A stretch of 47,953 bases of DNA from Folioceros fuciformis (taxonomy: Eukaryota), in the NCBI GenBank assembly GCA_049999805.1, contig JBNGIO010001806.1, positions 1 to 47,953 on the forward strand, written 5' to 3'. The translations under genes were made by a program, and so were the position numbers. The notes below the pieces were generated by a model. It saw nothing but the letters and a program-made list of their open reading frames with translations. It was not told the origin of the DNA and did no database searches. Position 1 is the first letter of the stretch. Every line of letters starts with the position of its first letter. Below are positions 5,415-44,488 of the stretch, one piece after another.

Positions 5415-5423
5415 TTAGGGTTT
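5415..5423 (-). promoter_or_regulatory. Telo-box (AAACCCTAA) upstream of NFU
   Basis: ttagggttt lies about 80 bp upstream of the NFU ATG. Confidence 0.4.
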
Positions 5424-5502
5424 AGGCCTCTTTTCCCTTACCTGGAACGAAGGCAGAGAGCTCTTTCGGCAGAGAGCTGGACTGCGTAAGCGATTTCTCT
5501 CG

Positions 5503-6345
5503 ATGGCGGCTTCGTGGAGGTGCGTGCGGCAGTTGCTGGGAAGAATTGCATCTCGGCCAGCAGCTGCACAATCTCCGGGGAATGGAAGAGCTGTCACAAG
5601 CTTAGCAGGAGCAATACATCACCAGAGGGTTCTGAAATCTGGCTCCACGGCATCAGACACGTGTTCCTTGTGGTCAGAGTCCAGGGGTTCTTCTGCCCGA
5701 TGGCGTCCTCATGCCGCGCATTGCAGGGGTATGTTCATTCAAACGGAGACAACTCCCAACCCGTTGTCCTTGATGTTTCATCCAGGAAAGCCAGTGATGG
5801 AAGTCGGGAGTGCGGATTTCCCAAATGCTCGTGTGGCTGTGACATCGCCGCTTGCCAAGGCTTTGTTCAGAATAGATGGAGTGATGCGAGTGTTCTTCGG
5901 CTCGAATTTTGTGACTGTGACCAAGGCTGAGGAACAGCCGTGGGAGATTCTAAAGCCAGAGATCTTTGCAGCAATCATGGATTTCTACTCAACGGGCGAG
6001 CCCTTGTTTACAGATGCGCAGACTCTGGCTGCTTCGGACACTGCCATACATGAAGATGACGATGAGACCGTGGCCATGATCAAGGAGTTGCTGGAGACCA
6101 GGATCCGCCCTGCTGTGCAGGATGATGGCGGGGACATCGAGTACCGGGGCTTTGATCCTGAATCAGGGATAGTAACCTTAAAGATGCAAGGCGCTTGTAG
6201 CGGATGTCCCAGCTCCGCCGTAACCCTGAAGTCCGGCATTGAGAATATGCTGATGCATTATGTGACAGAGGTGAAAGGCGTGAAGGAAGCAGTTGACTCT
6301 GACGATGAAGACGAGGGAGGCGCTGTGGAAGGGCAATCCAGATGA
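5503..6345 (+). CDS. NFU4: Mitochondrial NifU-like Fe-S cluster carrier (NFU4/NFU5-like), single coding exon
   Basis: Arg/Ser-rich presequence, [11 protein letters not shown] Nfu_N domain, [12 protein letters not shown] and the [11 protein letters not shown] CxxC motif. Confidence 0.95.
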
Positions 6346-8141
6346 ATGGCAATGCCCTCGTACGAGTTCTCGTTCACCTTTCGACTTCACTTTTGCTACA
6401 GGTAGTCGTATCATCTGGTGCTGGTCAGATATCAACTTGGTTTAGCTTTCACAAGTATAGGGGTGCTACGTGTGGTGAGCCTATGCTTTGTCGGTCGTCA
6501 ATCTTGTAACGCTCTAATTATCATTCGCTTGGATCGAGGAGCTGTAGGTAGTGACTCCGGTATGGACCACTTGGACGGTTCATTAGGTTGCATACGTGTC
6601 CACGGAGCAGAGGGAAACTCGCCGGCTATTTCACAACAACTCTCTGCTTTCATAGCCTCGCGTCCGAGCTTTCACGGTCGGTTCCTGCTAGAATGATTCC
6701 GGTCCAGTACATGTACAAAAGGGCAGGTGGCCAGGACACGTCATTCTGGTTGTCAGACACGGACGTGGAGAGTGCTTCTGTGTGGCCTCGCAGGGAGAGA
6801 GTTCATAGGCAGCAGACAATCCAGTACGGACTCTGGAAGACACCGAATTGCGGCAGAAAATTACAAAGTAATACTGTATGTACATGCAGTCCATGCTTCC
6901 AAGGATGTAGGTGTTTCTTGGTGCAGGCCTCACTCATGTCGCCTTCTAATTACATATTCACATGCGGAGGACGTTTGGCCAGTACGGTCGCACCATCGTG
7001 GGCCTGGGCAGCAGGACAAATCGGAGAGCCCTAAAAGATCTGCCATGTCAGGAATATGGTTTGTGGATGTGGTTTTCTCGCAGCAACGGAATTATCTGTG
7101 AAGAACAGGAACCCGGCATCACAGCCGGTGCACACTTCAAACTTGTGGATACCTACCGGTTCGAACAGGTTGTGGACCTTGTGGTGCAGCGAGTGCCGTC
7201 CTTGCTGCGCACTTGAGGACGGCTTTGTCGGTCTCGTCATGGTGTGAGGATGAATCTGGGAAGGCGCCTGGACCAACCACCTGGCAATCGTTGTCGCTCG
7301 ACAATGTTGTTAGGAAGCGGCTTTCAAGTTACCCAGCCTGTAACTAGTCTGTTCAATTCACTGGTGGGGCATGGCTGGAGGACACTCCGTTCTGCACGAA
7401 GGTGGTGCTGACTCGTTTGGGTGATAGCTGAGACGCTAATATCTAGAGTCCTGGAGAAGCCATTGTAGTGACCTAAAAACGGGCAGTCTCGCTTCCGAGA
7501 TGAAAGAAGCGAATGGTTGCCCCACTCCACACAATCGAATCCGTGCAACGCTTTGTGAGGTCTGGTTATCAGGATGGCGTTGGACTAGCTACTACCTCCG
7601 TGATCAGTAAACCTTGCAGTCATGGACATTTTCCAGTCATCCATACTTCGTCGACCCTACATTGAGGAGTTGGCAAGCCAATCCAGTGAGTCAGCCGCAA
7701 CTGGTGAGGTAGGATCTGATTCCGGCGACGACCAAGAGGAGTACTTGGGCCTCCTTCACTTTACTTGCCGTAGCAGGGCCACTCTCATATGTGGCGCCAA
7801 GTCGGAATGAGGCCTCCCTTGGCTTCCGCCTCGGCTTCGTACGCACGTATCGGTCTGCACATCAACCACCTGTGCCGAGGCTCCTACGTAGCCCCCTTCC
7901 TCACCTGCTGAAAGCAAGGCGTACAAAACGCCATGCCATAGCCTGGTTTCAGTGGACAGTCCGAGCATTCGGCACGGGCTCGGCGTGACTCGTTCCCGGC
8001 AGAGCCTTCCTTCAAGACCGTCTGGACTTGCGTTTTGAGTAGCTGACGATTTCCTGTAGGGGGGATAGCCTTGTTGAGCGATTTGGTCCGCGATTTGGTC
8101 CGCGATTTGGGCGATTGTGAGTGAGTGTGGGAGGAGTCGCC

Positions 8142-10397
8142 ATGGGCGAGACGTCCAGCACGGACGTAGAGAGTGGGCGAGTGGGAGGAAAGCACCAGTC
8201 CCTGGGCTCCCGCCGGCGGAATTCTTATGGAGAGCTGTCGAGCCCCCTCCTGGGCAAGGGGGGTGAATCTGTGAGCAAACTGTCCTGGAGGAACTGTCTG
8301 TGCAACCAGAAAAACCTGGCGGTGATTGCAGGGCCGACACTGGCCATTTGCAGCATCTCCCTGTCGCGAATCCTCAATGTGCATCTGCCCCCGGAGTTGG
8401 CTGCCCAGAACATTAAGATCTGGTCGATGCTTGGAGCCGCAATCTGGATCTGCTTCTGGTGGCTGACGGGGGCGGTTCCCGTGGCCATCACTGCGCTCAT
8501 CCCGCTCTTCCTGTTCCCCCTCTTAGACATTCGGGATTGCGACACCGTGGCCAAAGTGTACATGAACGACACCATCGCGCTCTTCCTCGGTTCCTTCATC
8601 ATGGCCTTGGCTGTGGAGCACCACAACGTGCACAAGCGCCTGGCGCTCAAAATTCTGCTTCTCTTCGGGGGCAAGAACATGGACCCTCACTTTCTCCTCC
8701 TTGGCTTCTGCGTCGGCCCCGCGTTTGTGAGCATGTGGATTTCCAACACCGCAGCTGCCGTCATGATGGTTCCCATGGCCCTGGGCGTGGCGCGCAAGGT
8801 GAAGCAAGGCGCATCGCACAACAACCACACGTCCACTGAGACCGATTTCAAAGAGGGTGAGCAGCAGCAGCAACAGCAAAACCAGGAGTCCGACTTCATT
8901 GTGCCTGGCGAGACGCCTGAGCCTCTCCTGCTCTACTGCCGGGGGCTGATGCTTGCCATCGCCTACGCTGTGGCCATCGGAGGCCTGTCCACGCTCACGG
9001 GAACCGGGCCCAATTTGATTCTTGGGGGAATGTGGAAGAGCATGTTTCCCGAGGCTGCGCCGATCACCTATTTGCAGTGGTTTCTGTTTGCATTCCCTCT
9101 AGGCCTCATCTACCTCCTCATCCTGTGGCTTCTGCTGATCTGGTGGTACTGCCCCGAGCCCACGGCCACTCTTGTCTCGGCTTCCTTACATCGGTCTGTC
9201 ATCGAACAAGAGTACAATAATCTCGGTAAGTAACTCCTGTCCTCCATCTGGTCTCCAATCGCATCAGGCACCCATTGATTGCGCTAATCGAAACGATCTC
9301 GCGTGCAGGCCCGATCTCCTTCGCAGAAAAGACTGTTCTCTCTTCGTTCACGGTAAACTGCCCCATCTTTCTCTCTAAGCTGTGAAATCTTGTCTCTGTT
9401 ATTGCGAGCTCAGGGAAGGAAATGTGACTTAGCTGACACTGGGTTGCACAGGTTCTCGCTCTTCTGTGGATAACGAGGTCTGTTGGTGATTATGGATGGG
9501 GAAACTACTTCAACGGCCTCGCTGGCGATGGCACTGTCAGTGTAAGCAATTCAAGGCCCTCTTCTTTCGTCCATGAAAGAAAGAAGTCCACCACCACCTC
9601 TGGAACCTCAATCTCAAGTGAACGTTCCATCTTGCAGATTATGGTGGCAATTGTGCTGTTCATGATACCTGACTGCAAATCCCAAGGGGATAAGCTCATG
9701 AACTGGAAATTGTGCAAGAACTTGCCATGGGACATCGTTCTCCTCCTCGGCGGAGGTACCATAGAACTCTGGCGCGCAAGGCGCTCTGCAAACATGTATA
9801 CGTAATTTCCCACTCACCCGTTCTCGTTTCCCGCAGGTTTTGCTTTGGCAGATGGAATTCAGGCCAGCGGTCTGGCAGACTGGGTGACAGCGCGTCTCCA
9901 ATTTCTGGACTCGCTGCCATATCTGGTGATCGCACCCGTGGTGGCGGTGCTAGTCACCTTCCTCACCCAGTTCACATCCAACAACTCCGCCGCCACCATC
10001 TTCCTTCCCCTTCTGGCTCAGGTGGCCATATCTATGCATGCCAACCCACTGCTCTTCATGATTCCAGCTACCTTGGGAGCCTCCTTCGCCTTCACGCTAC
10101 CCATTTCAACGCCACCCAACGCCATAGCGTTCTCCACTGGATTGGTGCCGATGAAGGACATGGCTCGGTTCGGACTGGTTTTGATCCCCGTCGGGCTCCT
10201 CCTCATCGCCGTCGGCATTCCCACTTTAGGTCAGTAATTCTGTTTCGGTCGTGTCGCAATAGAGACCCTTTCCACTGTTCTTACGCTGACTGTTGAGCTG
10301 GATTGCAGGGAGCAAAGTTTTCGGGCTCTCGTCATCACCTTTCATTTCAGTTCCACAATGGAGCACAGCATTCTCCGTGCACCAGTTTATGGATTGA
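8142..10397 (+). CDS. TDT: Tonoplast dicarboxylate transporter (SLC13/DASS family), 6 predicted exons
   Basis: Predicted exons 8142-9225, 9309-9352, 9452-9541, 9638-9755, 9837-10229 and 10309-10397 have GT-AG ends and consistent phases. Motifs [24 protein letters not shown] and [10 protein letters not shown]. Confidence 0.93.
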
Positions 10398-15293: not shown

Positions 15294-17075
15294 TTATAGC
15301 TGATGGTAGGGCGAGTTGGCAGGCAGAGGGTTTGCGACAGAGTCTGCCATCTTTGATGCAGGCTTCATGCCAGCTCCTTTGAGCTCAAACACAGATCCCA
15401 AGTCCATGGCTCTCTTACTTTTGAGAAACAACTTATGCTTGTTCTCAGGGCTGTCAGTTGCAAGAGGCCTTCTTGTACCTGAAATTCCCGTTTCACCACA
15501 GTTCCTCATACTGGCGGGAGTCTCCATCACAACCAAGTCAGGGGAGCCGGTCGGTCTGATGGTCAGCATACTCCTCCTAGATCCCGATGGAGTCTCCAGC
15601 ACTCTTCTTCTGGGACTATGGGACACACATGGAGTCTCCAGAACAGTCATCTTCGATCTGTGGCACGCCACTGGAGTCTCTGGGATCGTTCTTGGAAAAT
15701 CATGGAACACCTCTGGCGTCTCCGGGACCACATCTGCCTTTGCAGGTTCCATGTGTCTTGCTCTCTTCCGCCTCTGAGAAGAAACCAAACTTTTCGGCCG
15801 TTTCAGAGGGGGCAACACACTAATCTTCTTCAGCGCCTCCACTGCTCTGCTTTTACCAAAATGGGACAATCTTCGAGCTCTTTCCCTCTTTCTCTGACAC
15901 TCCTCCTCGAACTGCTTACTACAGCCAACGTCCTTCCCGCACCGCGCAGAAACAGGAACCCCAGCGATCTCCTTCAGCAACACGGGAACCTTAGTGTTTC
16001 CGCTAAGGCTCTTCTGAATGCCGGCTTCCAGGCTCGGAGCCGAAGCCTGCCAGTCGGATATCGGAATTTCTGTATCGGCAGAACATTCAAGACTGGCTGC
16101 GGCCTCCACCGTATTCGGGATATCCATGTCTCCAAGTTCCTCATTGAATCCGAGAAACTCCATTTGCGTGAATATCTGCTTCACAACGTCAGGAATGCTG
16201 CCAGAATATCGAACACCAATCACCCTTTCCGCATAGTCCATCAAACTCTCACCATCCACTACACCAAGCGTGAACTGCACATTATCCAGCAAATCACACA
16301 CTTCATCCAATAACCTCCCGTTCTCTTCCCTCCACACCGACTGGAAGGCAAGAATGATCTCCATCCGAAACAGCAGTTGAAGCTCCTGTGCTCGAAGTTT
16401 CTCCCGCGCGTCACCAACCGACCCAGATTCGGTGTCTCCAAGAAGCAATCCGACTAAACGTTGCACTACTTCCAACTCGCCACCAGCCTCCGCTTCGTCC
16501 CCGCTGGATATCAGCTGCAGCGCCTTTGATCCACTCGACACCATCTCCTTGGCAAATTCATGCACATCCAATGCAGCATTGCAGACACAATGCAACACCT
16601 TTTCGGGTAAGGCTCCAATAAACAACTCCGCGTCCTTGACAGTCATCCTCCCGACCACATCCTCCTGTCCCGCTCCGAGCACCGCACTGTCAGCCCTAGC
16701 TGAAGCTGCCCTCCGCCGGCTCCTCGAATCCTCCTCCCCTGTATTGCTCCTGACGATGTCGCACTGTACGGTCGTACTGGCCATGCTGGAGCACACCGGG
16801 AAGGCGTTCTTCTCCACATCCCTGAATCGTGTTGCGGCTGAGCTCCTCTCCCCGTCGCCGGTGCAGGTTCTGCAATTACTCTCTTCAACAGCATTGAGGC
16901 ACGGCGTAGCTGGAAGCTTCTCCACCAGCCTCACCCCTGCTGTAGGAAAACCATGCTCATCACTACGGCCTCCAAGTTCGACCTGCCCTCCTTCCGCCGA
17001 TCCTTCAGGGGAGCTGGAGTCATCATCATCCTTGTCCGAGGGCCGCTTCCTCTTTTTGGAGGCCCTTGGCGCCAT
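15294..17075 (-). CDS. Treslin/TICRR (Sld3)-like replication initiation factor, single exon
   Basis: KLRAQELQLLFRMEI...VCDLLDNVQF...SLMDYAERVIGVRY...VVKQIFTQME and KRERARRLSHF resemble the plant Treslin STD region. Repeated ETP CDK motifs and an N-terminal NLS (KKRKR). First ATG is at 17075; the ORF-track start is a TTG. Confidence 0.7.
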   Translation of the reverse strand: MAPRASKKRKRPSDKDDDDSSSPEGSAEGGQVELGGRSDEHGFPTAGVRLVEKLPATPCLNAVEESNCRTCTGDGERSSAATRFRDVEKNAFPVCSSMASTTVQCDIVRSNTGEEDSRSRRRAASARADSAVLGAGQEDVVGRMTVKDAELFIGALPEKVLHCVCNAALDVHEFAKEMVSSGSKALQLISSGDEAEAGGELEVVQRLVGLLLGDTESGSVGDAREKLRAQELQLLFRMEIILAFQSVWREENGRLLDEVCDLLDNVQFTLGVVDGESLMDYAERVIGVRYSGSIPDVVKQIFTQMEFLGFNEELGDMDIPNTVEAAASLECSADTEIPISDWQASAPSLEAGIQKSLSGNTKVPVLLKEIAGVPVSARCGKDVGCSKQFEEECQRKRERARRLSHFGKSRAVEALKKISVLPPLKRPKSLVSSQRRKRARHMEPAKADVVPETPEVFHDFPRTIPETPVACHRSKMTVLETPCVSHSPRRRVLETPSGSRRSMLTIRPTGSPDLVVMETPASMRNCGETGISGTRRPLATDSPENKHKLFLKSKRAMDLGSVFELKGAGMKPASKMADSVANPLPANSPYHQL

Positions 17076-17110
17076 AGCTGTTTCTTCAGAGGAACGGGGC
17101 TCATTCGAGC

Positions 17111-17118
17111 GCGGGAAA
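17111..17118 (-). promoter_or_regulatory. Canonical E2F site TTTCCCGC
   Basis: gcgggaaa on plus, about 35 bp upstream of the Treslin-like ATG. Confidence 0.6.
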
Positions 17119-17338
17119 TAAGAACTTGAAGCCGGTCCCAACCACCGTGCAATGCCGGTCCGCAAATCATGAAGAATATATGTACATACATAGTAATTTC
17201 ATTTAAAAGCGTTTTGTTAAAGACAGGCAGTCAAGCGAAGAAGAATTTGATTGAAGTCCACGTTTCGTTATGGGACGCGACTGTTGTCTTTCAGATAGGT
17301 GGGAGTATGTACGAAAATGAAACCCTGTAATTAGGGTA

Positions 17339-20300
17339 ATGGACGACGATGAGACAAAAGGGGTTTGGATTTTGGTGTCCCCACTCGACGAGGGTTCGAT
17401 CTCGGTTTGCTCTCAACTTGGAGTTGCCTTCCCCGCGGACGAACGATACATAGACAAGGACTGGACGGAATCTATTGAAAGTACCCCCCGAATGGACACA
17501 GAGACACGGGCTCGATCTTTTGATTCCGAGGAGGAGGAAGAAGAGGAGGATGAGGAAGAGGAGGAGGAGGATGACGAAGAGCAAGTGGAGGAGGACGACG
17601 AAGGATGGACATTTCATCTACCTGCCCCGGCCCAGGCTCTGGCCTTCGGGTCCGCTCCTTTGTATCCCAACTCTGTCAAGTGGTCCAACGAGAACCTACT
17701 GGCTGTGGCTAGTGGCCATTTAGTGTACATCCTGGTGAAGCCCTGCCCGCCGAGAATGTTGAATTTGCCGGGAAAATGTCAAGTCGGAACTCTGAACTTT
17801 CGTTGTGCAGAATCCAGCTGCTCTGTCCGGGCCAAGAGGCTTCGTCTCGCTAACGACAAATCCTGCGTTCAACATCGGGAGGATAAGAAACTCGGGTTTG
17901 CATTGCTTGTATTTGCTTGCGTCGTGGTTTGCGCCACGATACACGTTTGGAGGGACATGAAAAAGGGTGTCAAGTTGCATTTTGCCGTTCTCTGTGTGCG
18001 TTTCTTGTTCAGACCGGCAGGCAGCTTCTGTCCAGGCACTCGCCCTAGCCAAGGAGAGCCGTCCATACGTTAGGAGTCTGGACTGGTCTCCGCAAGGATT
18101 TTCTTCGAATGGAGGGTGTGTGAAATTCATTTGGATGCTGTTGTGTGTTGTGGCGAGCATGCTTGTTTCCAGGCTAATGAACGGGTACGGACCTTGTCTC
18201 GTGACGTGCAGTTGTCTCCTTGCTGTCTGCACAACTGATCACCGTGTGAAGCTCTATCGTGCTCCATATCGTGAATTTCAGTCTGAGTGGATCGAGGTGC
18301 GGGGTTTCTCAAGTTTATGGTGTTGTTCGCTGAGACGCTTGTATCTCTGAGCGTACTAGTTGACGCGAAGACTACTTGTTATATTGCAGGTTCTGGATGT
18401 ATCGGCACTAATTTATGCTCAGTATGCCCAAAACCACTTTGCAGAGACGCAGTCCACAGCTCGGGCCCTGGCTTTGGTATGTAGCGTGGTACTAATGGGT
18501 TCAGTTGGTTGCTATTTTTTTGCCGTAGGTGCTCTGTCTGGATTCTGTCTAGCCAGCGTAATTGGCCAATGCTTTCCTCTTGCACAGGAAGACGAGGCTT
18601 CAGCTCCTCAAATCAGAACAGTTTCATCAAGAAAACGAAAAGCAGCGGATGAAGCCAGACTGCGTCCTGGAAAACGTAGGATAAACCGACAGTAAGTGTC
18701 AACAGTCGGCAACCCTTCAGGTGTCTTTGGCGTTTAGAAGAAATTCTTCACAAGTTTGTTAGTTGGTAAGCTGGTACAGACCCAAATCTTATTTCTTGAA
18801 TTGATGCAATGACACTTGCTGTTCAGAGTGATGCGCAACACCGTTGTTTTTGATGATCCTGAGATTCGAGATGGGGAGAAAGTGTGCGAGAAAGTGTGCC
18901 TTCTAACAAGCTCTCAGTTACCCCCAATCTCTCAGGGATCAAGAATTGAGGTGAGTGCTGCAGGATACCAATGTTGCATCGTAGGGGGGTCTCTTTCTTC
19001 GTAACTCAAGGTTGCCTTCCCTGTGAATCTCCTGTCAAATCAGGTACGGAGGGAGAAGGGGGGAGTGCGCGTCTGGCTATCTGGTATTGTGTTAAAGGTG
19101 ACAGGTAGCAGGACGTTGGTCAGATATGGAACATCATTATCAGGTCCACTACCACAGAGGAAGTGAATCTCTTCGTTTTAGTGGACCAGGCTAGTTCTTC
19201 AGTTTTCGGTTTGTAGTATTCATTCACAGTGCGTTATTATCTGGTGGCAGATGCGAAAGAGGAGTGGCTAGACAGTAACTTGTGCCGTGAAAATGGAGTT
19301 CTTCGGACTGCTGCCCCTTGCATGCGTCCTCTGCTCACTGCAGAAATGCTCTTACAGAAAGGGTTGAGTGTGAGCCTTCTCTACGTTGAAAGGGATGGGA
19401 TGTCAGATGGAGACCCAGTTGAGATATGGAAAAACGATAGGTATGTATGCTAAGCTGTTCCAGTTCACCTGTGACGTTTGTTTACTGAAACAGGAATGGA
19501 GTCTGGTATTGCAATCTTGTTTTAGTCAGAAGGTGATAGATAAGGCGCTGACTTGAGAGGTGAGTTGTCTGCTCAGTTTCATGCCTTGTAACTTGACAAT
19601 TACTGTTTTCTTGCAGGTGGCAGGAAGGAGTGCTGGTAGACGCAGCCTGCGTACCTCCAAAAGTTTCAATTACAGGTGCCAGCTCTGGTCGCGCATTTCG
19701 TCATGGAAAATCTCTCGCTTCCTCTTTTGAACATATATGTTGATAAATACTTTGCGTACAGGTGACCGTGCTGTACTTGATGTGGAGCAAGTGTTTTTGC
19801 GGAGGCCTCCACGATGGAGCGGAAAGGACTGGGTATGGTTTGCCCAGCGGTGTTAGCTCTTGTCTTTAGAGCTGATTCGCTGATGACTCCGTCCGGAAGC
19901 TTAGCAGCTATTTTACAGTGCAGGAATGGAGTTGTAACCAGGAGGAAGCAGCCAACAAACGGATACTTCTGCGCCGGGGACCAGAAGTTGAGGTTACTGC
20001 AGCACAATATGCAGCCAGGAGTAATGAGCTGGCTCATTTAGTTTCTGTATGGTCTGCACTATGTTCTGCAGCATGTGGGCAAGGTGGCAAAGGTGAACGG
20101 AGGAGACATTTTGTAATGCTTGCAATAGGCGGAAAATCTGGCAAAGTTTTCTTTTTCAGAGTTCCGAAGCTTCTGTCGTTTTCTGGAGAGACGGCCCTTC
20201 CCTTGCATGAGATGGATTACCTTGGCTCAGTCCCTGCCCATGAGTCCTGGGTGACAGGGCTTGCGTGGGCTAGCACCCCGGGTGAGTCTGAAGATGTCGG

Positions 20301-22828
20301 GACTGCGCTTTTACTTGCTTCTGGGGGCTCCAACGGCAGGTGGGATGTGTGCCAAGAGTTTTATGTCAGTCACGCGCCACAATTGTTGTTGAGGTGGTGT
20401 GCAGTACTGAATACTTTTTGGTCATGGCAGTGTGAAACTGTGGATGGCCGATGTTCAGTCCCTTGCAGACTGCTGTCCCTCACCAAATGGCTCACCACTT
20501 GAGTTACTGAAAGAGGTAATGCACGGCACATTACCGGTCTTCACGTGTCCTTTACTGCATGTGACCGCAGAGTGTGAAACGTTTGTTCAACTTCTGTATG
20601 TGCTTTCTGATTACGAAACAGGTACTACCTGTGGACCGTGTGCCAGTAACGTCTCTGGCAATGATACCTTGTTCACATGCTGCTGGACAAGTTGTATTGG
20701 CTGTTGGGAAGGCCTCTGGTAGTTTGGTGGCATTGGAGTGCCACAGAACTGGAGATTTGGGGTCAATTGCCTGTGAGCTCCGAGCGCATGATCACTTGGT
20801 AATCTTGTCTGCTGCGACCTGCAGTGTCTCGACCCCTTCGACCCTGTTCTGAGGTTAAAATGTTGGCAGGCAAACTGTGGGTGAATTACGCTTGTTCTCC
20901 CTCTTTTTGTTTCCTCAGGTCACAGGGTTGACATGGACATTTGATGGGCGGATCCTCTACAGCTGTTCACAGGTACTGTTCTCTCATGAGACTTGCGGTT
21001 ACTCCTTCCTAGTGGCAAGTTCCAGTTGTGTAGGAGCTGTACATCGTATCAAACAGCCATCCAAGGGTTTGTGAGCCTCTTTGGTCGATTCAGGATAGCA
21101 GAATGAGAACTTGGGAGTTTTCCAACAGCAGGTTGTGGCCTGTGGCCTTTCCGAGTGGCTCTTCATTGCTCACCACTGATACCTCTCAGACAACTTTAGA
21201 GGTAGCTTGCCTAAAGAGCTTTCATCCTTCCTTCGGGTTTCCATTGCGAGTTATGCTGCCAATGGGGCGTCCTGGATTCTGTCATGCAGCTTCCCGCATC
21301 ATCGCTGGAGTCCTTCTTCGGACTGGCCTTGTCCCCAGGGAACTTGGCTTTAGTGGTGGTACGCTTCGCACCTGCGTTTTTCTTCTGGTCAGTGACAATG
21401 TGGGTTGGTCTGGGCTTGTTTGTCTCGGGAGCCTTGTGTAAGGAACCTTGTAAGGAACTCTCATATATCCTGCTGCGCCTTGTTCAGTTAAGAAGCATAG
21501 CAGCCGATATGGTTGACCAAATGTACCAGGCCAGGTGAGCTCATCCTTGTCCATGTGTTTTCTCCTATACACATTGTTCAGACAAAAGCTTCTCTCATGA
21601 GGTGAAGTCTGCTCTTCTCAGGTCACAAAAAGGAGTTGTGCAGCTTTTCTGGATTGGGGGACAGCATATCCAAGGTGATTTTCCTCCAGCTCAAGACTGT
21701 GTTTCAGTTGGTTTGCCGGGTGAGGACCTTGCAAGATGGAAATCCAGAATTGTGGCGGCACTTCATCATATCGAGGAGAAGGAGCAGCCCTTAGTTCTGT
21801 GGGATATCGTGGCTGCAACTTCTTCGATCAGGGTACTCACCGAGAGCACGCAGCATGTCGGAGATATTCTGTCGAGCTGGATTTGTAGCAAGCAAGAGTC
21901 TTCAACAACTCCCTTGGAATGGAGTTTGGAGCAGATGGAGGAGTACCTGAGAGAAGCAAGTTGCCGGCGATTACAAATGCTGAACTTGACTTATCGATAC
22001 CTTCTCCTCGTCAGATTCAGAGCAGACGTCCTGAGCGGGCGAAGCAGCCAAGTCGTATGGGATACGCACAGAAGGATGATGTCAGAGCAGGATAAACAGC
22101 TGGAGAGTTCATCTCCTGATTGTGTCGTGCGCCAAGAAGAATTGTGGCGAGTTCACTTGGCGGCAATCGAGCTGGAATTGCGGCAGAGGCTTATGTATGT
22201 GAGCCTCTTCGCATCGGTCTGGAAGAGGATATATCTGGAGGAAAATGAAAACACAGCCTGTTTCGAAGATGACTGGAGTCCTTCCGGGACGCATCTCATG
22301 GCCGCTTGGGTGTGCACAGAGGGCTTCAAGACATTTCCTGAACTGTTGCAGATAACAGCGCGGGCGTCTGACTCCGGGAACGAGTAAGTTTCATAACACT
22401 GCGGAGTGCTATTTTTTGTCATGCTTGCTGAGCCAAAATTGTATGCTTTTGCATCCAGGTGTAGGTTGGGGCCCTGGGGATCTGGTGTACGTGAAACTTG
22501 CACAATTTGTGAGGCACCGGTGCCATTGGAATCACCTGAATTAGGTCATTGTTCCAGAGAAGGGGAAGCATCAAAGCACAAGCTGCAGAGGTGCGCCGTG
22601 TCCTTGGAGATATGCCCGGCCATCCCTCTTTGGCAATGCCAGGGTTGTGCCCGGTCTGTTGTCAATCTTCCCCCCTTTCTCTTCTTCTCCATGACCAGCA
22701 GAACACAGGTTGACTACATTCCTTTGCCTCTTCTCCTCCATGAAACTGTGTGTCCTTGTTGTCCCTTTTGCGGGATCCTAATTCTGAGACCGCAACCGAA
22801 ATTTCTGCTGGCCGCGTCCCTAGTTTAG
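17339..22828 (+). CDS. TFIIIC90/GTF3C4-like WD40 protein with C-terminal zinc finger and an internal tandem Agenet module; many exons
   Basis: Acidic N-terminus, YPNSVKWSNENLLAVASGHLVYILNPA..GPRG, VRSLDWSPQG, CLLAVCTTDHRVKLYR, HESWVTGLAW, LLASGGSNG, VTGLTWTFDGRILYSCSQD, FFGLALSPGNL, MYQARSQKGVVQLFWIGG, and C-terminal CTICEAPV..HKLQRCAVS..CPFCGIL. Confidence 0.85.
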
Positions 22829-23187
22829 TCCAGCATTCCGTCCCCTTGCTACACGGTGATCGGAATGGAGTCCAGGTTTCGCCGGAGTTTTTCCGGCGAA
22901 TGGGGGATCCCTCCACTGCTGCTGCTGGGTATCGGACAAATCCTAGGATTGAGGTTTTCGTGTTAGTGTCTCGTCTAAATTCATTGTACACGTATAATCG
23001 TTGTGTAGTCTGGGGGTTTCCCGGTCAATAGGGGATCCCTGCCCTCCTGCTTTTTGGGTTCGGACGGTCCTAGGTTGAGAAATCTCAGGATTGAGATTCT
23101 CGTATCAATGTCTCCCGGAAATTCTTTGTATAGAAACGGACGAGCCGTTATGGCACTTGGTATGTACAGCATGCACCTGCCAACTCG

Positions 23188-23260
23188 TACAAGCTAGAGG
23201 GTTGACAAGCCTCCAGAGGGTCTACAAGCTTCCAGAGGGTTTACAAGCTTCCCGGGAGGG
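23188..23260. repeat. 19-bp tandem repeat, about 3.5 copies
   Basis: Units of the form agagggtttacaagcttcc. Confidence 0.8.
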
Positions 23261-25644
23261 ACACATCTCATGAACTGTACAGAGAAGAACGCATGAGGAC
23301 CTCTATTTGGACTGTTTTCTATTTTTTTAGAATGGTCATAGCATCAACCAAGAAGACGACCAGCTTCCCTTTAAGGTGAACGTGAAGGTTGGCAACCCAG
23401 GAAGGTCAAGGTTGTCCATGCCTGGGAAATTTGTGGGGAGTGCAAATTGGAGTATAAACGTTTTTTCTTCTGCTTGGAAATGTAACCTTGCAAGCTAATA
23501 ATTGTGAGCCTCATAAGAACGCAACCAACTTTATTTTTTTATATAATTAATAAATATTTTAAACCCAGGCCGAAACCCAGAAAATTTCCTTTTGATGGCA
23601 ATTTCACAATTGGATTGTCACGGTGCGGAGGGGTTATGATTACGCCGAAAACCGTCCCGGCGTAGTCAGTCAGGAGTTGTGTCACCAAAATTTGTGCAAC
23701 GCCTTGGCAAGCCGTCTGTTGCGTTATGATTCGCAGCTTAGTTGCAGAACGCGTCTCATGCAAGGAACTTGACAACGGAATCCAAAATCGCCTCTCGCAG
23801 TCTTGACTGAGCAGTCTGCGGAATGGGTACTTGCTAGGCAGAGAGGAATGTGAGAACTCCAGCAATTGGTACAGCGGTATGTAGATTAGGCAAGTCTCCT
23901 GCAAGTGCCTCTCCGTCATGGCTCTGAACAAGTGCTTCGTGTGCTTACATATCGAGTGCGCCTGAGACAAAAGAATTTGTACGCCGTCCCTGATGTTTGT
24001 ACCCATATGGGATGTTCGCGTCAAATGCGTAACAGGCATGTTACCCTGATAGGGGACCTGATTCTGGCCTGTCTCAGCATACAGAGCACGTGGTGTCAAG
24101 GAGCACTGTTTTGTGCGGCATCTTCTGCATGAGAGATGGTATTTGGACAGCTGATACTGTTCCTGGAGCAGAACTGCACAGCTGTGTGTACATATTCTAC
24201 GATACAATGTAATGATAAGCAGTCCCTGACTGGAGGACAACGATGTGCTTCACCAGCCATGCTCCAGGCTTGAAGATGACCCTGTGTTTGTAAAAAAATC
24301 GAGAGAGAGGGGACGCGTCCCCTTTGGCATGCCAGACTGCAAGCCAAGAAAAGTTGTTGGAGTAGCTGACATACGGACATGTATACGTAAATGATTCAGA
24401 AAGTTTGTGGAATTGAGATTGAGATTGCTCTCAAATAGGAAAATATTTACATACGTACGCAATGCATGTGGGATCTTAGCTAGAAGTGTGGGTCACAATT
24501 CAAGAGGGATAGCCCACATCCAGAATGCCAGCTCACACGTTCACACCAGCCTGTGACAGTGATTGCACTTTGGATGGAGGGCCTGGGCGTGGGCGTGGGC
24601 GTGGGTCCTGGTCACGACACCGAAAGCAGTGGATTGATCGTGATGTTCAAGCGCAAGCTAGGGCTAGGGTTGATCGGGCAAGGCCCGAGCTTGACCGGCC
24701 TGCGTCGTCCCTTTCATAACCTGTCCATGTTGAGAAGCCTTATGACACCTAGTAAGACGACGGAGCAAGCTGTAAAGCCTTACCTTCCGAGTTCCCCAGA
24801 GTTGTTTGCAGTCGTGAGGGCCTCACATGGCGGGGTGCATGACAGATATTTGTGTCCGCTTGTCTTGGCATCGGTTGTTGTTCAGGAGTAGATTCGGAGC
24901 ATGAGGAAACAGCTGGTGCGGCCAAAGGCAAATTTCAAGGTCCTGACGACTTCATTGTCACAGGCTTCAGTGAGTGTCCTTTTGACTTGGGACAACGGAC
25001 GACGGCGAGTACGTACCAGTACAACTGTGAAGCAAACAGAGCCTCTGCGGGGAGAGAGTCGTGGCAAGGACGGCGTCCCGTCCCGTCATGTCCGGTCCCG
25101 ACTCATCCTGTTCAGGCAGTACAGGCTGTACGCCGTATTCAAATGTAAGGCAGTGCATCAATTGGATATTTGTCCTGTGCTCTGGTGTGGTGTGGTGGAG
25201 GTTTTGCGCTATGGCACCGCCCACGTGTGCACTCGGTGTCCCAGAATGTTTGTTTCATGTGTGGACTCGAGTAGACAGGAGCCGAGCAGCGAGCCGACGT
25301 GCCGGTGAGCTGCATTTTCGAGGCGGCTAAATGTTGTTTGCTGACTTCGTCTGTCACTGTGTCATTCTGGAGGCTCTGAAGAATTTGTTGGCCCCGACGG
25401 TCACAGCAATTGCAGCTAGGGTAAGAGCCTTGACCGCGGGGGAGTGGAATATGCGCTGGGCTGGCGACGACTGGGCCCTCCTCGTCGGGGCCCGAGCCCC
25501 TGTCGCGGTGCCAGTCTTTTAGGACAAGACGCGATCAGTTCCTGCACCACGGGGTTCCGGCCCCATGCCTTCAGTGCGGGTCGGGGCGCTTTTTGTTTAC
25601 GGTTTGTGCAGGGAATGTCACCAACCGGATCGTCAGAATTCCGA

Positions 25645-27857: not shown

Positions 27858-29323
27858 ATGGCAGATCATTTCAAGCTGTGGAAGGCAGCGGATGTGGCCT
27901 TAGGCAAGCCCGCCGTTCCGCACTTTCCGCTCACCGCCTCGGTTGCGGATGCCATCAGGGCGCTCCAGCAGATCAGCGATGGCCGGATCAGCGTCTGGGA
28001 ATGCCGCGGCGCCGCTCACCTGCGGCGGCCACCGCCACTCAAAGTGAAGGATTATTCTGAAGCCGGAGCTACAGTAACTGCGCACGACGCCTGCAGGAAG
28101 TGGGAGGAGACCGAGGGGCCTCTCAGCCTCGGCCAGCACCAGTGTAGATGTGTGGGGATTCTAACCAAGGTGGACATTCTGTGCCATCTGGCCGAGGATT
28201 GGCAGCATCGAGATCGGGCCTTGCGCACCTGCGTGTCGGAATTGCTGCCTCCTTTCTCCTCCGCGGTGGCTCATGTTGATGGTAAATCCAGGTGAGTCGG
28301 TCACGATTTCGGTGCCTGTGTTGCTCTCTTGGCGTCGGAGAATGTTTGGACTCAAAACGTTGTGGTGACAAGTGTACTTGTGTTTGTGGATTTGGGTGAT
28401 TCGACAGATTGCTAGATGCGCTCTCTTCCATGGCGGATCTCGGGGCGCATCACCTGGTGCTGCGGATGGAGGAAAGCCGCCTCCACGCCAGAATAAGCTC
28501 CATTTTTCGCCACTCCTCCAAGCCTACTCGTGCTACGTCCGGCTCGTGCCAGCTCTACTGCTGTTTGACCCAGGAGGACGTTCTCCGCTTCCTGCTGGGA
28601 TTCATTACCCGGGTGGCCAACGCACCGCTGATGACAGTGGAGGAGCTGGGGATCATCGACACCAATTTCCAGAGGATCAGTGCCACGGCACCTGCGGTTT
28701 CGGTCCTGAACTTGATCAAGGCAGCCAGCCAGGAGATGACGTCCGTGGCGGTCGTGGAGGAGCTGTCTTACCCTGACTACCTGTCAGGGGAGGAGGTGAG
28801 CGGAGTGCGGCTCATGGGAGACCTGTCTGCCTTCTCCATGCGGAACTGCGACGAGACTGGAGCGGAGGCGCTTGCCACACTCTCTGTGAAGGAGTTTCTG
28901 GATTTTGCCGGAGGGGACTTGACAGCATTGCTGCGGGCGAGGAGGCAGATGTCAGGCGGCCACGGGCTCGCTTCTTCCCTTCCTGCAGGCTGGGAGGAAT
29001 CATCGTCGGAAGACGAGTCATCCGGGCTGCCGTCCCCAACAGGGCCTCTCCGGGTCTCGTTCGACAGGATACCCCATCGCCCATGGCAGCTCTTCTCCAC
29101 GCAGTCGGGAATCCAGGCTCGGGTTGCTCCCATTACCTGCCGCCCCCAGAGCACGCTGGTGGCAGTCATGGCTCAGGCTCTTGCCAACAGGGTGACCTAC
29201 TTGTGGGTGACAGATGATAACGACATGCTCATCGGCCTCGTCACTTTCAGAAGCATCATCGGAGTTCTGGTGCACAATCTGGAGACCCTGGAGTTCCTGG
29301 AGACTGAAGGAGGTACTGAATAA
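27858..29323 (+). CDS. CBSX5: CBS-domain protein, CBSX5-like, 2 exons
   Basis: Exons 27858-28291 and 28408-29323 (phase-2 GT-AG intron). Motifs DVALGKP, SVADAIRAL, CRCVGILTKVDILCHL, CCLTQEDVLRFLLG and TCRPQSTLVAVMAQALANRVTYLWV. Confidence 0.85.
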
Positions 29324-36210: not shown

Positions 36211-39200
36211 CTACAAGACGTTAATGATCTGTGCATTCAGCTCCTCCAGCGTCGTAATAATGCTTTCATTTCCCCGTCGCTTGTTCTTGTCTTTCACGGA
36301 AAACATAAGCACCCTCTCCCTGTGCTCGATCCAACTTTGCCCGGGCCTTTTCCTTCCACCTGCACCCCGTCTCATACGCTCTACTTGTCTGGCTTCCTCT
36401 GGCAGGCCGCTGAGGGCATATATGTTGGACATCAGGATATACGCAGCACTCTGTTTCGGTTCCAGTTCCACAGCAAGGTTGAAAGCACGCCTTCCTGACT
36501 CCATGTCGCCATGCTTCCTACAAGCACCGAGTAAAGACAGCCACATTGCAACATCAGGCTGCACTGGCATTGTCAACAGCAACGTTTCTGCCTGCTTCAG
36601 GAGTCCTGCTCGTCCAAGAAGGTCAATGACACAGGAGTAGTGCTGCCTCACTGCAGCAATTCTGTAGTCTCTGCTCATGGACATGAAGTACTGCAGGCCT
36701 TTTTCCACAGTGCCGGCATGACTGCACGCCGTGAAGAGACACACAAATGTGATTGCGTCTGGTCGTATGCCTGCGTCCTGCATTTGTTTGAAACATTGCA
36801 AGCTTCTTGTATAGTCTCCGTGCCGCGCATATCCCGAAATTAGTCCATTCCAGGCCACCACATCTTGCGTGGACAGTGTGTCAAATAACTGCTGAGCTTT
36901 AACCATCCGCCCGCATTTTCCGTAGGCATGTATGAGAGCAGTTGCCACCAGCACACTGTTCTCCATTCCGTTTTGTATCATATCATGCCGGATGTCGGTG
37001 CACATTCTCAAAGCTCCAACATTGCCGCAAGCTCTTAAGATGCAAAGAAATGTTGCCTCACTCAGTTTCACGCCCTCCCGTTTCATTCGCAGGTAAAGTT
37101 GGAGGGCTTTCAACTCTAGCTCTTGCTCAATGTAAGCGCCCATCATCGAATTCCAAGATACCACATCACGCCCCGGATGTGTGTCAAACACTTTCCGCGC
37201 ATCCACGACGCTGCCACATTTTGCGTACATGTTGATGAGACTGTTGCAAACAAACGTGTCTGATGCATAGCCTCTTCGACAGATCTCTGCATGCAATAGT
37301 GCACCCTTTTGTAGAGCATCTGCTTTCACTGTGTAGCCATCAACAATCTCGCCCTTCTCCATAGCTGCCAAGCTGCCGCATGCTTTTAGAGTGGCCACAT
37401 AGGTCCGACTATCAGGCAGAACACCCGCAGCTTGCATACCTGCAAAAGCTTGCAAAGCCCTGTCACCCTCTTCTTGTTCAGCATAACCAGCAATCATGGC
37501 ATTCCAGGAAACGACATCACGATCAGACAATGAGTCAAACACATGCCTGGCATCCTCAAGGCTCCCGCATTTAGCATACGTGTGAACAAGCGTGTTGCAG
37601 ACCATCCTGTGTGATCCATAGCCCTGACGAATTAGTTCTGCATGGATGGCTTTCCCCATCTGCAAAGCCCGTGATTTCACACGCTGACCGTTAGTAAAGG
37701 TGCACTCCTCCATATTTGCAGCAACTGCACATGCTTTCAGGGCACCCACAAATGTTCGACTGTCAGGTGTCACACCTTTCTGCTGCATTTGAACGTAAAG
37801 TTGCAAACCATCCTCACCTTGTTCTTGCTCAGCATATCCTGAGAGCATCGCATTCCATGACACCACATCACGTATCGACAATCTGTCAAAAACCTGCTGC
37901 GCGTCTGATACACTTCCACATTTGGAGTACATGTGGACAAGGGTGTTTCCAATGAAGACATCCAATTCATAGCTCCTTTCAACAGCTTCGGCATGGATTG
38001 CCTTTATCGCGTGCAGACACAGCACTTTGACAGGACGCCCTTCAACTAATGTCCAACGTTCAATGCTTGCCATCCCACTGCATGCCTTCAGCATACTCAC
38101 AAAAATCCTCTCATCTGGACTTACGCCTGCATCTTGCATTTGGATATATAACTTTAGAGCCTCGTCACTTAGTTCATGTTCAGCATACACTCCAAACATT
38201 ACATTCCATGCTATCAAATCACGCTGACTCATCAGGTTGAACACATATCTCGCATCTTGAATGCTCCCACATTTCGCATACATATGAACAAGGGCGTTTC
38301 CGATAAAAACATCTGATCCAAAACCTGCTTTACATATTTTCTCATGAATAGTCTTACCCCTCGCCAACGACTGAGTTTTGATTGGTCTCTCAAACATCAG
38401 CATTCCTTCCTCGTTAGCGACAACGCAGGCACATGCTTTTAGTACACTCGCAAAAATCCATTTGTTTTCGATTTCACCTTCTGCCTGCATTCGTGCATAG
38501 AGTGACAAAGCCTCCTCCCCTAGTTCTTGCTGGACGTATCCTAATATCATTGTATTCCACGACACCACATCCCTCTTATCCAATCTGTCAAAGACAGACT
38601 GTGCCTCCACCATGCTCCCACATTTGGCATACATGTCAACCAAAGCAGTGCCCACGAAAAAGTCCAACTCACATCTAGTTTTGGCAGCTTCTGCGTGGAT
38701 CTGTCTGCCTTCGTGTATCGCAGTAAAACTTGCACAGGCTTTCAATATGCTGGCAAGCGTATACTTGTTTGGCTTTACACCTTCCTCCTTCATTTTGTGG
38801 TACAAATCAAGGGCCTCTCGATCTCGTTCCTCCTTCACATATGATGATATCAACTCCGTCCATGCGGAGACTTTGCGCACGGGCAATCTGTGAAAAACTT
38901 GCAAGGCTTCTGAAAGACTCCCGCACTTCACAAGCATGATGACGATAGAGTTGCCCAGGTAGACATTCGATTCCAGCCCCTTGTTGGAAATGAAGCCATG
39001 CAGGAGATTGGCTTCCCTGATGGCCTTCTTCCTACTACAAGCTTGCAAGAGACACTCATAAGTTTCCATGGAGATCTGAGTGCCTTGCTCGTCCATCCAG
39101 TGCAGAGAAGTAAATGCCTCCTCCAGTCTTCCCTCCTCACACAGTTTCTTCAACTCTCCATCCTTGCACTGTACACTGCAGACAGAAAGCCGTTTAGAAC

Positions 39201-44130: not shown

Positions 44131-44488
44131 CAGTGCAGCCAGACGCTGTGGTTGCCAGTGCGCTGTACAAAGCGTAGGAGTAGACACATGCGCATTATCC
44201 GGTGGCCAGAGGAAGTGAGGGCAATGCTTGAGGTAACTGTCGCAAAAGGAAAGTGAGTATGTTTGTTTGGATTTTCGTGTCACAGTTTCCGACTGGAAAA
44301 GGAACATCGAACGCCGACGTGGTGAAGCGCCTACTCGACACACACTTGTCACTCGTCTGTGTGAGCAAGTCCAACCCTCGAATGGCGGAGTAGCGAGTAA
44401 ACTCGGACGGCTCCACAGGTGAGACAGCAGATTTGCCTTGTGCCTGGTCTTGTTGGCTTTCCCTGCTTGTTGTTACCTGGTGCCCCTG

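Follow-up and report, generated by a model that had tools for sequence, protein, structure and literature searches.

A plant TFIIIC90-like gene with a predicted tandem Agenet cassette inside its WD40 propeller

A GTF3C4/TFIIIC90-like gene in the window

The window (the whole stretch of DNA that was analysed, 47,953 nucleotides) contains a GTF3C4/TFIIIC90-like coding region on the + strand at 17339..22828. It consists of 20 exons that give one open frame of 1163 amino acids after joining. The start was set at the first ATG of the open frame and is uncertain. Fifteen junctions of the gene were taken from contigs of two runs (X1 and X2). Exons 1-3 and the junctions 21534|21622 and 22383|22459 were inferred from GT..AG borders, reading frame, homology, and contig pieces. 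RNA is the presumed kind of both runs and is not on record; their contigs are presumed to derive from mRNA because at least 15 GT..AG introns are absent from them. Two other runs presumed to be RNA (X3 and X4) yielded nothing for this gene. Intronless PPR-E and PPR-DYW genes lie nearby, and they indicate that the DNA is from a land plant but nothing narrower.

Sequence comparisons identify the predicted product as the plant orthologue of GTF3C4/TFIIIC90, composed of a WD40 propeller and a C-terminal zinc finger. The zinc finger (zf-TFIIIC, Pfam PF12660) is carried by the last exon (22459..22828, +), and its match at 22397-22825 scored 26.2 bits (cut-off 23, E 8.4e-6). TFIIIC_delta (PF12657) matched a single exon stretch of the window with E 4.1e-4 and 20.2 bits, under the 27-bit cut-off, and full-length orthologues colinear with the window protein match this family with E as low as 9e-26. 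The colinearity is evident in an alignment with a Cryptomeria protein (P0019), in which residues 99-1163 of the window protein pair in one stretch with residues 6-1123. Further evidence comes from exon 12. A phmmer search with this exon found 67 proteins, nearly all of them plant TFIIIC90-like, and TFIIIC_delta was present in 33 of the 41 longer matches; a word-index protein search with the same exon returned 2 proteins only. Orthologues are recorded as [quoted passage not shown]; in Marchantia the record reads “general transcription factor 3C polypeptide 4”.

A profile of 31 plant orthologues also matched human GTF3C4 (8cli_B; E 4.5e-10). The alignment is a single block of 269 positions, with profile positions 410-678 opposite residues 238-492, and the match ranked below generic WD40-repeat proteins. 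When a single sequence (P0008) was used in a phmmer search of the PDB, generic WD40 proteins were the only matches and human GTF3C4 was not found. On the GTF3C4 gene tree the window protein groups with non-seed plants, with no firm placement among them.

Exons and predicted fold of the cassette

The protein departs from the conserved N-terminal part of TFIIIC_delta at the last propeller exon before the insert (18212..18296, +), which was placed by Pfam TFIIIC_delta positions 96-132 and by alignment with two orthologues (P0001 and P0002). On the same + strand, exon 6 (18588..18691) translates into a linker whose basic patch has two Lys/Arg clusters and, judged by composition, may be nuclear-localisation-like. 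Exon 7 (18827..18950), delimited by contig junctions, supplies the remainder of the linker, a clasp strand, and from ~18925 the first strand of Agenet 1; the profile match described below begins here at residue 320. The core of Agenet 1 is in exon 8 (19044..19143, +), which has its junctions in both X1 and X2 and a match to Pfam Agenet below the cut-off. Exon 9 (19251..19440, +) contains the end of Agenet 1, closed by an Arg-Pro motif near 19330, then the loop between the two domains; the first strand of Agenet 2 follows from ~19400. Strands 2-3 of Agenet 2 are in exon 10 (19617..19675, +). Its end is in exon 11 (19762..19832, +), with an Arg..Pro..Trp......Trp motif that is common to AGDP1-type Agenet pairs. 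The assignments of exons 9 to 11 rest on junctions, alignment, and HMM. Exon 12 (19924..20339, +), assigned from its phmmer matches and from the end of the cassette HMM match at residue 472, provides the closing clasp strand, a short linker, and the re-entry to the WD40 propeller.

The cassette is part of the spliced transcript. Its five junctions (18950|19044, 19143|19251, 19440|19617, 19675|19762, and 19832|19924) are all GT..AG. All five are present in a 3563-nt contig of X1 (at least 99% alike in 5 of 5 X1 contigs) and again in a 2731-nt contig of X2, which comes from a different organism (90-95% alike). These contigs are blind to minor isoforms without the cassette exons. In four other species, all listed isoforms that span the loop keep the cassette (six in Nymphaea, four in Cryptomeria, eight in Saponaria, and eight in Diphasiastrum), and the three members without it are C-terminal fragments.

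Comparison with other plants shows that exons 7-11 encode a predicted cassette of ~150 residues, made of two Agenet (Tudor-like) barrels and set in a surface loop that follows the first portion of the propeller. An HMM (A1, 184 positions) was built from the corresponding insert in ten other plants, with the window excluded. It matched the spliced window protein with 70.9 bits over residues 320-472 (HMM positions 12-174 of 184); shuffling the insert region 500 times gave a best score of 7.6 bits. Taken alone, the 33 residues of exon 8 matched Pfam Agenet (PF05641, profile positions 6-37 of 61) with E 3.7e-4 and 21.4 bits (cut-off 27), and none of the other small exon pieces had a Pfam match when searched alone. 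Pfam Agenet also matched five of the ten orthologous cassettes at E up to 1, the best at E 1.2e-7. Against the PDB, A1 found the AGDP1/ADCP1 type of structure, with both halves aligned: 5zwx (E 4.8e-5), 5zwz (3.2e-4), 6ie5 (4.1e-4), and 6ie4 (8.3e-4), together with 6ie6 and 6ie7 (E < 1e-3). A PDB search with exon 8 alone gave chance matches only (E at least 0.39), and a word-index protein search with exon 9 found no proteins.

The double-barrel fold was modelled on the cassette of the Telopea orthologue, and the fold of the window cassette is assigned by homology to it. The AlphaFold model has a pLDDT of 82.2 and a pTM of 0.78. Each of its ten best Foldseek matches is a tandem Agenet from a plant (best E 3.5e-7, target-normalised TM 0.68). 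VIA-align gave Z of 11.6-12.1 and rmsd of 3.0-3.6 over 123-130 residues for eight plant tandem Agenet entries; beyond the plant Agenets came FMRP/FXR at Z ~10, followed by the tandem Tudor of UHRF1 at Z ~9. In the model, a strand before barrel 1 pairs with a strand after barrel 2, and the window segments that match these clasp strands lie in exons 7 and 12. The cassette would be held by a linker of ~95 residues with the basic patch on one side and by ~20 residues on the other. Such linkers and clasp would correspond to the usual layout of a loop-inserted domain.

Much of the initial annotation withstood these analyses. The peptides it quoted are found by translation at their places in the window, and of the limits it gave to the insert, 18925 falls within exon 7, and exon 11 ends at 19832. 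Its five exons are spliced as claimed with the frame open, and the possibility that they are skipped in mRNA is countered by the contigs and by the isoforms of the four species. Its GTF3C4 host is borne out by TFIIIC_delta, zf-TFIIIC, the colinear orthologues, and the profile match to the human protein. The tandem Agenet module it described is upheld by the profile score against shuffled sequence and by the matched AGDP1/ADCP1 structures, and a Tudor-like fold is predicted for the Telopea cassette, at Z ~12 to plant tandem Agenets.

Distribution of the cassette among plants

The cassette is found at the same site in many angiosperms, magnoliids and numerous eudicots among them: Nymphaea, Telopea, Macadamia, Protea, Nelumbo, Ranunculus, Coptis, Papaver, Tasmannia, Aristolochia, Tetracentron, Liquidambar, Saponaria, Gypsophila, Nepenthes, Impatiens, and Actinidia. 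Outside the angiosperms, two conifers (Cryptomeria and Taxus) and a lycophyte (Diphasiastrum) have it at this site. The homology between the window cassette and those of the other plants extends along its full length. All 17 matches of the cassette profile were TFIIIC90-like proteins. The initial annotation knew of no Agenet domain in angiosperm GTF3C4 and regarded the module as a feature of this lineage. Neither view survives the carriers from Nymphaea to Actinidia and those among lycophytes and conifers.

Orthologues without the cassette, as judged from gene models, include those of Brassica, Setaria, Marchantia, Selaginella, Rumex, Drosera, and Heliosperma. In Brassica, 22 cluster members of ~887 residues lack it and are otherwise intact. 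In a tree of 31 orthologues, for which 5 of the 153 cassette columns were kept, 12 rows have the cassette and the fewest state changes that account for the pattern number nine. The GTF3C4 gene tree agrees with plant phylogeny. Because the cassette is absent from many branches of a gene tree that follows the phylogeny, it is, on comparative sequence grounds, apparently old and repeatedly lost. Some of the apparent losses may be gene-model errors. For example, the Heliosperma entry without the cassette is partial and is sister to the cassette-bearing Saponaria. Kingdonia retains a 24-residue vestige of the first cassette strand. A long loop in the Marchantia protein, checked for a diverged cassette, had no HMM match and consists of low-complexity sequence.

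Proposed function and comparison with known systems

What does the cassette do? We consider the account as a whole fairly probable: a GTF3C4 orthologue whose Agenet cassette is old, repeatedly lost, and not of the AGDP1 type, with a tethered docking module as the proposed role. The docking role taken alone is our best guess from sequence, and belief and doubt in it are about equal. In this role the cassette would recognise a partner associated with chromatin, which would be a histone surface or else a basic protein. Contact would be made through a surface outside the classical cage, and docking would assist in positioning TFIIIC on chromatin or in keeping it there. The cassettes are mostly acidic (23 of 25 sequences, with median pI 5.0 and median net charge -7), so a basic partner fits better than nucleic acid. 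The window cassette itself is not acidic (pI 8.15).

The initial annotation had proposed a built-in methyl-histone reader, through which TFIIIC would be linked to chromatin marks. The nearest solved relatives, both in sequence and in fold, are all H3K9me1/2 readers (PMC6208443), and most of the TFIIIC90 cassettes resemble the histone-binding face of AGDP1 in being acidic. According to the same paper, AGDP1 reads H3K9me2 and H3K4me0 through Tyr122/Trp127/Phe144/Glu149 and Glu45/Glu89. In the window and 24 orthologues, the positions of Tyr122, Trp127, and Phe144 are aromatic in 0/25, 2/25, and 3/24 sequences, respectively, as mapped by three gap-free HMMER alignments of ~15-20% identity plus a derived numbering offset. 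The acidic lid at the Glu149 position is kept in 9/25, the Glu89 position of the K4 pocket is Pro in 25/25, and the Glu45 position is acidic in 12/24. TFIIIC90 cassettes have aliphatic or polar residues at the cage and pocket positions; the window has Lys, Gln, and Ile in the cage, Ala at the Glu149 position, and Lys at the Glu45 position. Because the cage and K4-pocket residues are not kept, we think that the cassette is probably not an AGDP1-type H3K9me reader.

A methyl-histone reader could still work through another pocket or through two invariant Trp. The first hairpin of Agenet 2 has two Trp that nearly all sequences keep, with conserved flanking Glu. Each of the two invariant Trp lies one residue ahead of a cage position, and an alignment shift of one residue would put both of them in the cage. 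However, the conserved Trp align with AGDP1 Phe/Trp that are not among the cage residues named in PMC6208443, and an Arg..Trp..Trp tail is found in AGDP1 too. Since these residues are non-cage in AGDP1 and the tail is common to it, the conserved Trp look like family-wide structural residues. A methyl-reading role in any of these forms is therefore unlikely. In other words, the initial interpretation holds for the identity of the host and for a tandem Agenet in a WD40 loop, and it fails for the lineage restriction and the methyl-reader role.

The cassette may instead have no outside ligand. It would then pack on the propeller or on another TFIIIC subunit and have a structural or autoregulatory role; this would account for its easy loss. 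The nine or more state changes among the 31 orthologues, whole clades such as the 22 Brassica members whose protein is otherwise intact, and conserved residues that are mainly generic to the fold are all consistent with this. From lycophyte to eudicots, however, the cassettes in A1 have 15 invariant columns and a mean column identity of 45%, which exceed the expectation for a dispensable spacer, and the cassette sits on long, poorly conserved linkers. This explanation is quite improbable. Binding of nucleic acid, either B-box-adjacent DNA or nascent Pol III RNA, is very improbable: the fold matches include, at low rank, Tudor-like barrels of the KOW kind (5ohq), and the window cassette is slightly basic, but the predominantly acidic cassettes argue against it and the top-ranked fold relatives include none that binds nucleic acid.

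A more far-reaching reading is speculative and rather unlikely. The TFIIIC of the ancestor of vascular plants, perhaps of land plants, would have had its own chromatin-reading module, with a non-classical pocket for a histone state, and would have used it to steer or keep TFIIIC at tRNA genes, SINE-like repeats, or boundary sites. Plants that lost the cassette (Brassicaceae, grasses, Marchantia, and Selaginella) would have moved the link to other proteins. If this were true of the model plants, it would explain why the cassette has gone unnoticed.

TFIIIC is the first factor to recognise tRNA-type promoters; a further role of it, in yeast and animals, is the marking of chromatin boundaries. 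To our knowledge, its dealings with chromatin in plants are almost unstudied. Literature searches found no paper linking Agenet with TFIIIC or “transcription factor IIIC”, none joining TFIIIC, “Tudor domain”, and GTF3C4, and, among the matches listed, none on the plant TFIIIC90 subunit. One of these matches (PMC11893794) deals with fish. A conserved reader-type cassette in a TFIIIC subunit would offer a testable handle on the plant TFIIIC-chromatin question. Its patchy distribution explains why work on Arabidopsis, rice-type grasses, and Marchantia would not have come across it, and also provides natural comparisons with and without the cassette, for example Saponaria versus Rumex or Drosera within the Caryophyllales. 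Caution is warranted in that the fold is common with H3K9me2 readers and the cage is absent; it should not be assumed that Agenet means methyl-histone reader.

How does the protein compare with known systems? In both GTF3C4/TFIIIC90 (human 8cli chain B) and the window protein, TFIIIC_delta is followed by zf-TFIIIC. Relative to the GTF3C4/TFIIIC90 family, the window protein has an extra acidic N-terminal extension of ~98 residues, and in the searches made the Agenet cassette in the loop was seen only in plant orthologues. FMRP/FXR1/FXR2, with their N-terminal tandem Agenet, and UHRF1, with its tandem Tudor, have the same double-barrel fold, but they have no significant sequence match to the A1 profile and a different protein context. 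The plant AGDP1/ADCP1 and AGDP3 cassettes (5zwx, 5zwz, 6ie4-6ie7, 7yta, and 7yt9) are the best matches of the TFIIIC90 cassette in both sequence profile and fold. They have two Agenet barrels in tandem, as predicted here, and the Arg..Trp......Trp tail follows barrel 2 in both types. The inter-barrel loop of TFIIIC90 cassettes is variable and longer than in the AGDP1 type, with pLDDT <50 at residues 68-85 of the Telopea model. Finally, AGDP1/ADCP1/AGDP3 are free-standing arrays of cassettes, whereas here a single cassette lies inside a Pol III factor.

Transcript structure of the gene and its surroundings

The interval 18925-19832 lies in the interior of a + strand gene made up of multiple exons. 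The initial annotation had assembled an Agenet pair from five small exons, and its quoted peptides were recovered across three forward frames, each preceded by AG and followed by GT. Evidence of splicing comes from contigs of four public sequencing runs (X1-X4) placed on 16900-23400; X1 and X2 are presumed to be RNA. X1 held 0.52 of the gene's sampled words and yielded five contigs, each of at least 99% identity, the one of 3563 nt among them. X2, from another organism, yielded three contigs that were 90-95% alike, one of 2731 nt, and no contig of X3 or X4 was placed on this region. The X1 and X2 contigs contained at least 15 joints, all GT..AG among the matches listed. The five joints around the Agenet exons (18950/19044, 19143/19251, 19440/19617, 19675/19762, and 19832/19924, + strand, after cut shifts) are all GT..AG and were seen in both X1 and X2 contigs. 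Because these contigs leave out many canonical introns, they display the pattern expected of spliced mRNA, and the exons first proposed from the genomic sequence are borne out to the extent that the runs are RNA.

The joined exons form a single open frame of 20 exons and 1163 aa (17339-22828, + strand), with introns of 75-176 bases. For exons 1-3 the borders are predicted from GT..AG sites, frame, homology, and contig pieces, as are the joints 21534/21622 and 22383/22459 and the start codon. One X1 contig (17866-18041) runs unspliced through the predicted intron 2 (17896-18012) at a depth of 10.5 versus 56.1 for the main transcript contig. Either this reflects intron retention or pre-mRNA, or the exon 2/3 border needs checking. 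From the predicted start codon, the frame opens with an extension of ~98 aa (17339-17632, + strand) that carries a long Glu/Asp run and is missing from angiosperm orthologues. A repeat inside it (17524-17601) was passed over in contig placement.

A 634-aa open frame (15294-17198, - strand) lies head to head with the gene, ~140 bases from its start codon. This frame resembles the Treslin STD domain weakly, below threshold (E 2.6e-4; 21.4 bits, cut-off 24.2), and its 16900-17097 part is covered by X1 and X2 contigs. Ordinary neighbors encode an Nfu/NifU iron-sulfur scaffold (5419-6345, +), a sodium:sulfate-symporter/citrate-transporter-type membrane protein (8121-9233, +), and a CBS-domain protein (28400-29323, +). 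Two adjoining long intronless PPR genes follow (36211-39216 and 41275-44472, both -), both with an E motif and one of them also with a DYW deaminase domain. In land plants, PPR genes of these types are tied to RNA editing in organelles.

A tandem Agenet cassette in a TFIIIC90 orthologue

Several lines of evidence identify the host protein. In Pfam searches of contiguous exon stretches, the last exon matched zf-TFIIIC (26.2 bits, cut-off 23, E 8.4e-6) and the region around exons 3-4 matched TFIIIC_delta (E 4.1e-4). When exon 12 was used as the query of a full HMMER scan, 67 proteins were recovered at E ≤1e-3. Among the 41 longest, which were scanned with Pfam after 26 short fragments were excluded, 33 contained TFIIIC_delta. 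Two angiosperm proteins identified with exon 12, P0001 and P0002 (Taraxacum), align end to end with the spliced window protein. Sources name the matches 'Transcription factor IIIC 90kDa subunit N-terminal domain-containing protein' and, for Marchantia, 'general transcription factor 3C polypeptide 4'. Two of the 41 scanned proteins, P0031 and P0068, proved to be unrelated chance matches in the Pfam scan. A2, a profile made from 31 full-length orthologues, matched the human GTF3C4 structure 8cli_B at E 4.5e-10 over a single stretch (profile 410-678, residues 238-492), with generic WD40-repeat proteins ranking above it; a single-sequence search did not find 8cli_B. Together, the Pfam matches, the orthologue alignment, and the 8cli_B match make the host the plant orthologue of TFIIIC90/GTF3C4, as had been supposed. 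TFIIIC90 is part of the B-box-binding half of TFIIIC. TFIIIC90 has been reported to have histone acetyltransferase activity in human cells; in yeast and animals, TFIIIC serves as a mark of chromatin boundaries.

The window protein is ~210 residues longer than cassette-less orthologues. The extra residues lie between exon 4, where the conserved N-terminal part of the propeller stops, and exon 12, where the propeller is re-entered. A phmmer search of 69 proteins with this insert gave ten matches (E 2e-15 to 3e-7) covering query ~35-185, nearly its full length, at the same site in every protein, and their alignment revealed motifs that the proteins share in each half. In a profile built from the matching parts of these ten proteins, with the window protein excluded (A1), 15 columns are invariant, including six Trp columns, and mean column identity is 45%. 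This profile scored 70.9 bits against the window protein (aa 320-472); the best of 500 insert-region shuffles reached 7.6 bits.

A1 matched solved plant Agenet structures: 5zwx (RsAGDP1 AGD12, E 4.8e-5), 5zwz (3.2e-4), 6ie5/6ie6 (4.1e-4), 6ie4/6ie7 (8.3e-4), and 7yta (0.036). In the 5zwz and 6ie5 alignments, both cassette halves paired with both barrels. Pfam Agenet matched five of the ten A1 members when each was scanned separately (best E 1.2e-7) and gave a sub-threshold match to window exon 8 by itself (E 3.7e-4; 21.4 bits, cut-off 27). Further evidence comes from an AlphaFold2 model of the Telopea cassette made with A1 (pLDDT 82.2, pTM 0.78), to which the window protein is tied by the 70.9-bit homology. 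The model consists of two all-beta units separated by a disordered loop (residues 68-85), and its N-terminal strand pairs with its C-terminal strand. The top ten Foldseek hits of this model in the PDB were plant tandem Agenet chains (best E 3.5e-7), with TM by target of 0.63-0.69 for nine single-cassette chains and 0.36 for the four-domain 7yt9. For eight plant tandem Agenet entries, VIA-align gave Z 11.6-12.1, with 123-130 residues superposed at rmsd 3.0-3.6. The insert is thus a tandem Agenet, as initially read.

Age and probable repeated loss of the cassette

The cassette had been considered specific to this lineage. However, by source names its carriers include the lycophyte Diphasiastrum, the conifers Cryptomeria and Taxus, Nymphaea, the magnoliids Tasmannia and Aristolochia, Ranunculus, Coptis, Papaver, Telopea, Macadamia, Protea, Nelumbo, Tetracentron, Liquidambar, Saponaria, Gypsophila, Nepenthes, Impatiens, Actinidia, and three Logan proteins. 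The architecture is therefore more general than was thought. In a large protein collection, all 17 matches to the cassette profile were TFIIIC90-like. Precomputed Pfam annotation assigned Agenet to 2 of these 17, so the architecture may be hard to see from annotation.

No A1 score above 5 bits, the measure of absence, was obtained for Selaginella, Marchantia, Setaria, Brassica, Punica, Acacia, Trapa, Linum, Taraxacum, Erigeron, Handroanthus, Escallonia, Rhodiola, Rumex, Drosera, or Heliosperma. The Marchantia loop is long and of low complexity. Kingdonia uniflora P0029 contains a 24-aa first strand of the first Agenet (aa 261-284, 12.6 bits) followed by an unrelated linker; this strand is either what remains after a loss or the product of an exon-skipping gene model. 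An orthologue tree of 31 rows, built with 5 of 153 cassette columns retained, matches plant phylogeny: non-seed plants are separated from seed plants, which run from Cryptomeria through Nymphaea and a Setaria (monocot) branch to eudicots. On this tree the window protein groups with the non-seed plants, with no finer placement. The cassette occurs in 12 of the 31 rows, requiring at least nine state changes. Among carriers, the isoforms on record that cover the loop all retain it. These data are most simply read as a single orthologous gene whose cassette is old and was lost repeatedly. A number of the apparent losses may be gaps in annotation, such as the partial Heliosperma model beside Saponaria. 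Separately, an X2 contig at 18691-18851 has the start of exon 7, the pre-cassette linker, swapped for 24 other letters with the cassette junctions intact, and so the linker diverges faster than the cassette.

Pocket residues and the possible role of the cassette

Does the cassette read methylated histones? In the plant H3K9me2 reader AGDP1, as described in PMC6208443, the second Agenet cages H3K9me2 with Tyr122, Trp127, and Phe144, Glu149 forms a lid, and Glu45 and Glu89 hold H3K4me0. In the HMMER alignment of A1 with 5zwx, chain index plus 19 recovered all of these residue names and fixed their profile positions, to which the window cassette and 24 orthologous ones were aligned. The cage positions are aromatic in 0 of 25 (Tyr122), 2 of 25 (Trp127), and 3 of 24 (Phe144) cassettes, with Lys, Gln, and Ile in the window. 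The lid is acidic in 9 of 25 (Ala in the window), Glu45 is matched by an acidic residue in 12 of 24 (window Lys), and Glu89 is replaced by Pro in all 25, the window included. The conserved Trp align one place ahead of the cage residues, and also within an Arg..Trp..Trp tail common to AGDP1 and the cassette. They are therefore read as probable fold residues, although these alignments are of low identity and a one-residue shift would alter the picture. As these pocket residues are mostly not conserved, a methyl-mark reader, the function first proposed, appears less likely than was thought.

How might the cassette act instead? What is shown is an old tandem Agenet cassette spliced into the loop of a TFIIIC90 orthologue. 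Judged from sequence, it would sit on flexible linkers, one with a basic NLS-like patch, and would be missing the classical cage. The best guess, with about an even chance of being right, is a tethered module that docks a chromatin-associated partner independently of methyl-lysine. Methyl-histone reading through a non-classical pocket is unlikely but carries some weight. That the cassette is an internal structural or regulatory element is quite unlikely. Nucleic-acid binding is very improbable. Of the 25 cassettes, 23 are acidic (median pI 5.0); that of the window is near neutral (pI 8.15).

A literature search of main texts found no paper linking Agenet or Tudor domains to TFIIIC, and none of the matches listed concerned the plant TFIIIC90 subunit. 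The component parts are of known kinds; their combination, together with how old it is and how patchily it was lost, appears to be undescribed. Beyond the plant tandem Agenets, VIA-align matched the fold of the Telopea model to FMRP/FXR at Z ~10, to the UHRF1 tandem Tudor at Z ~9, and to SGF29 and SAWADEE at Z near 8.
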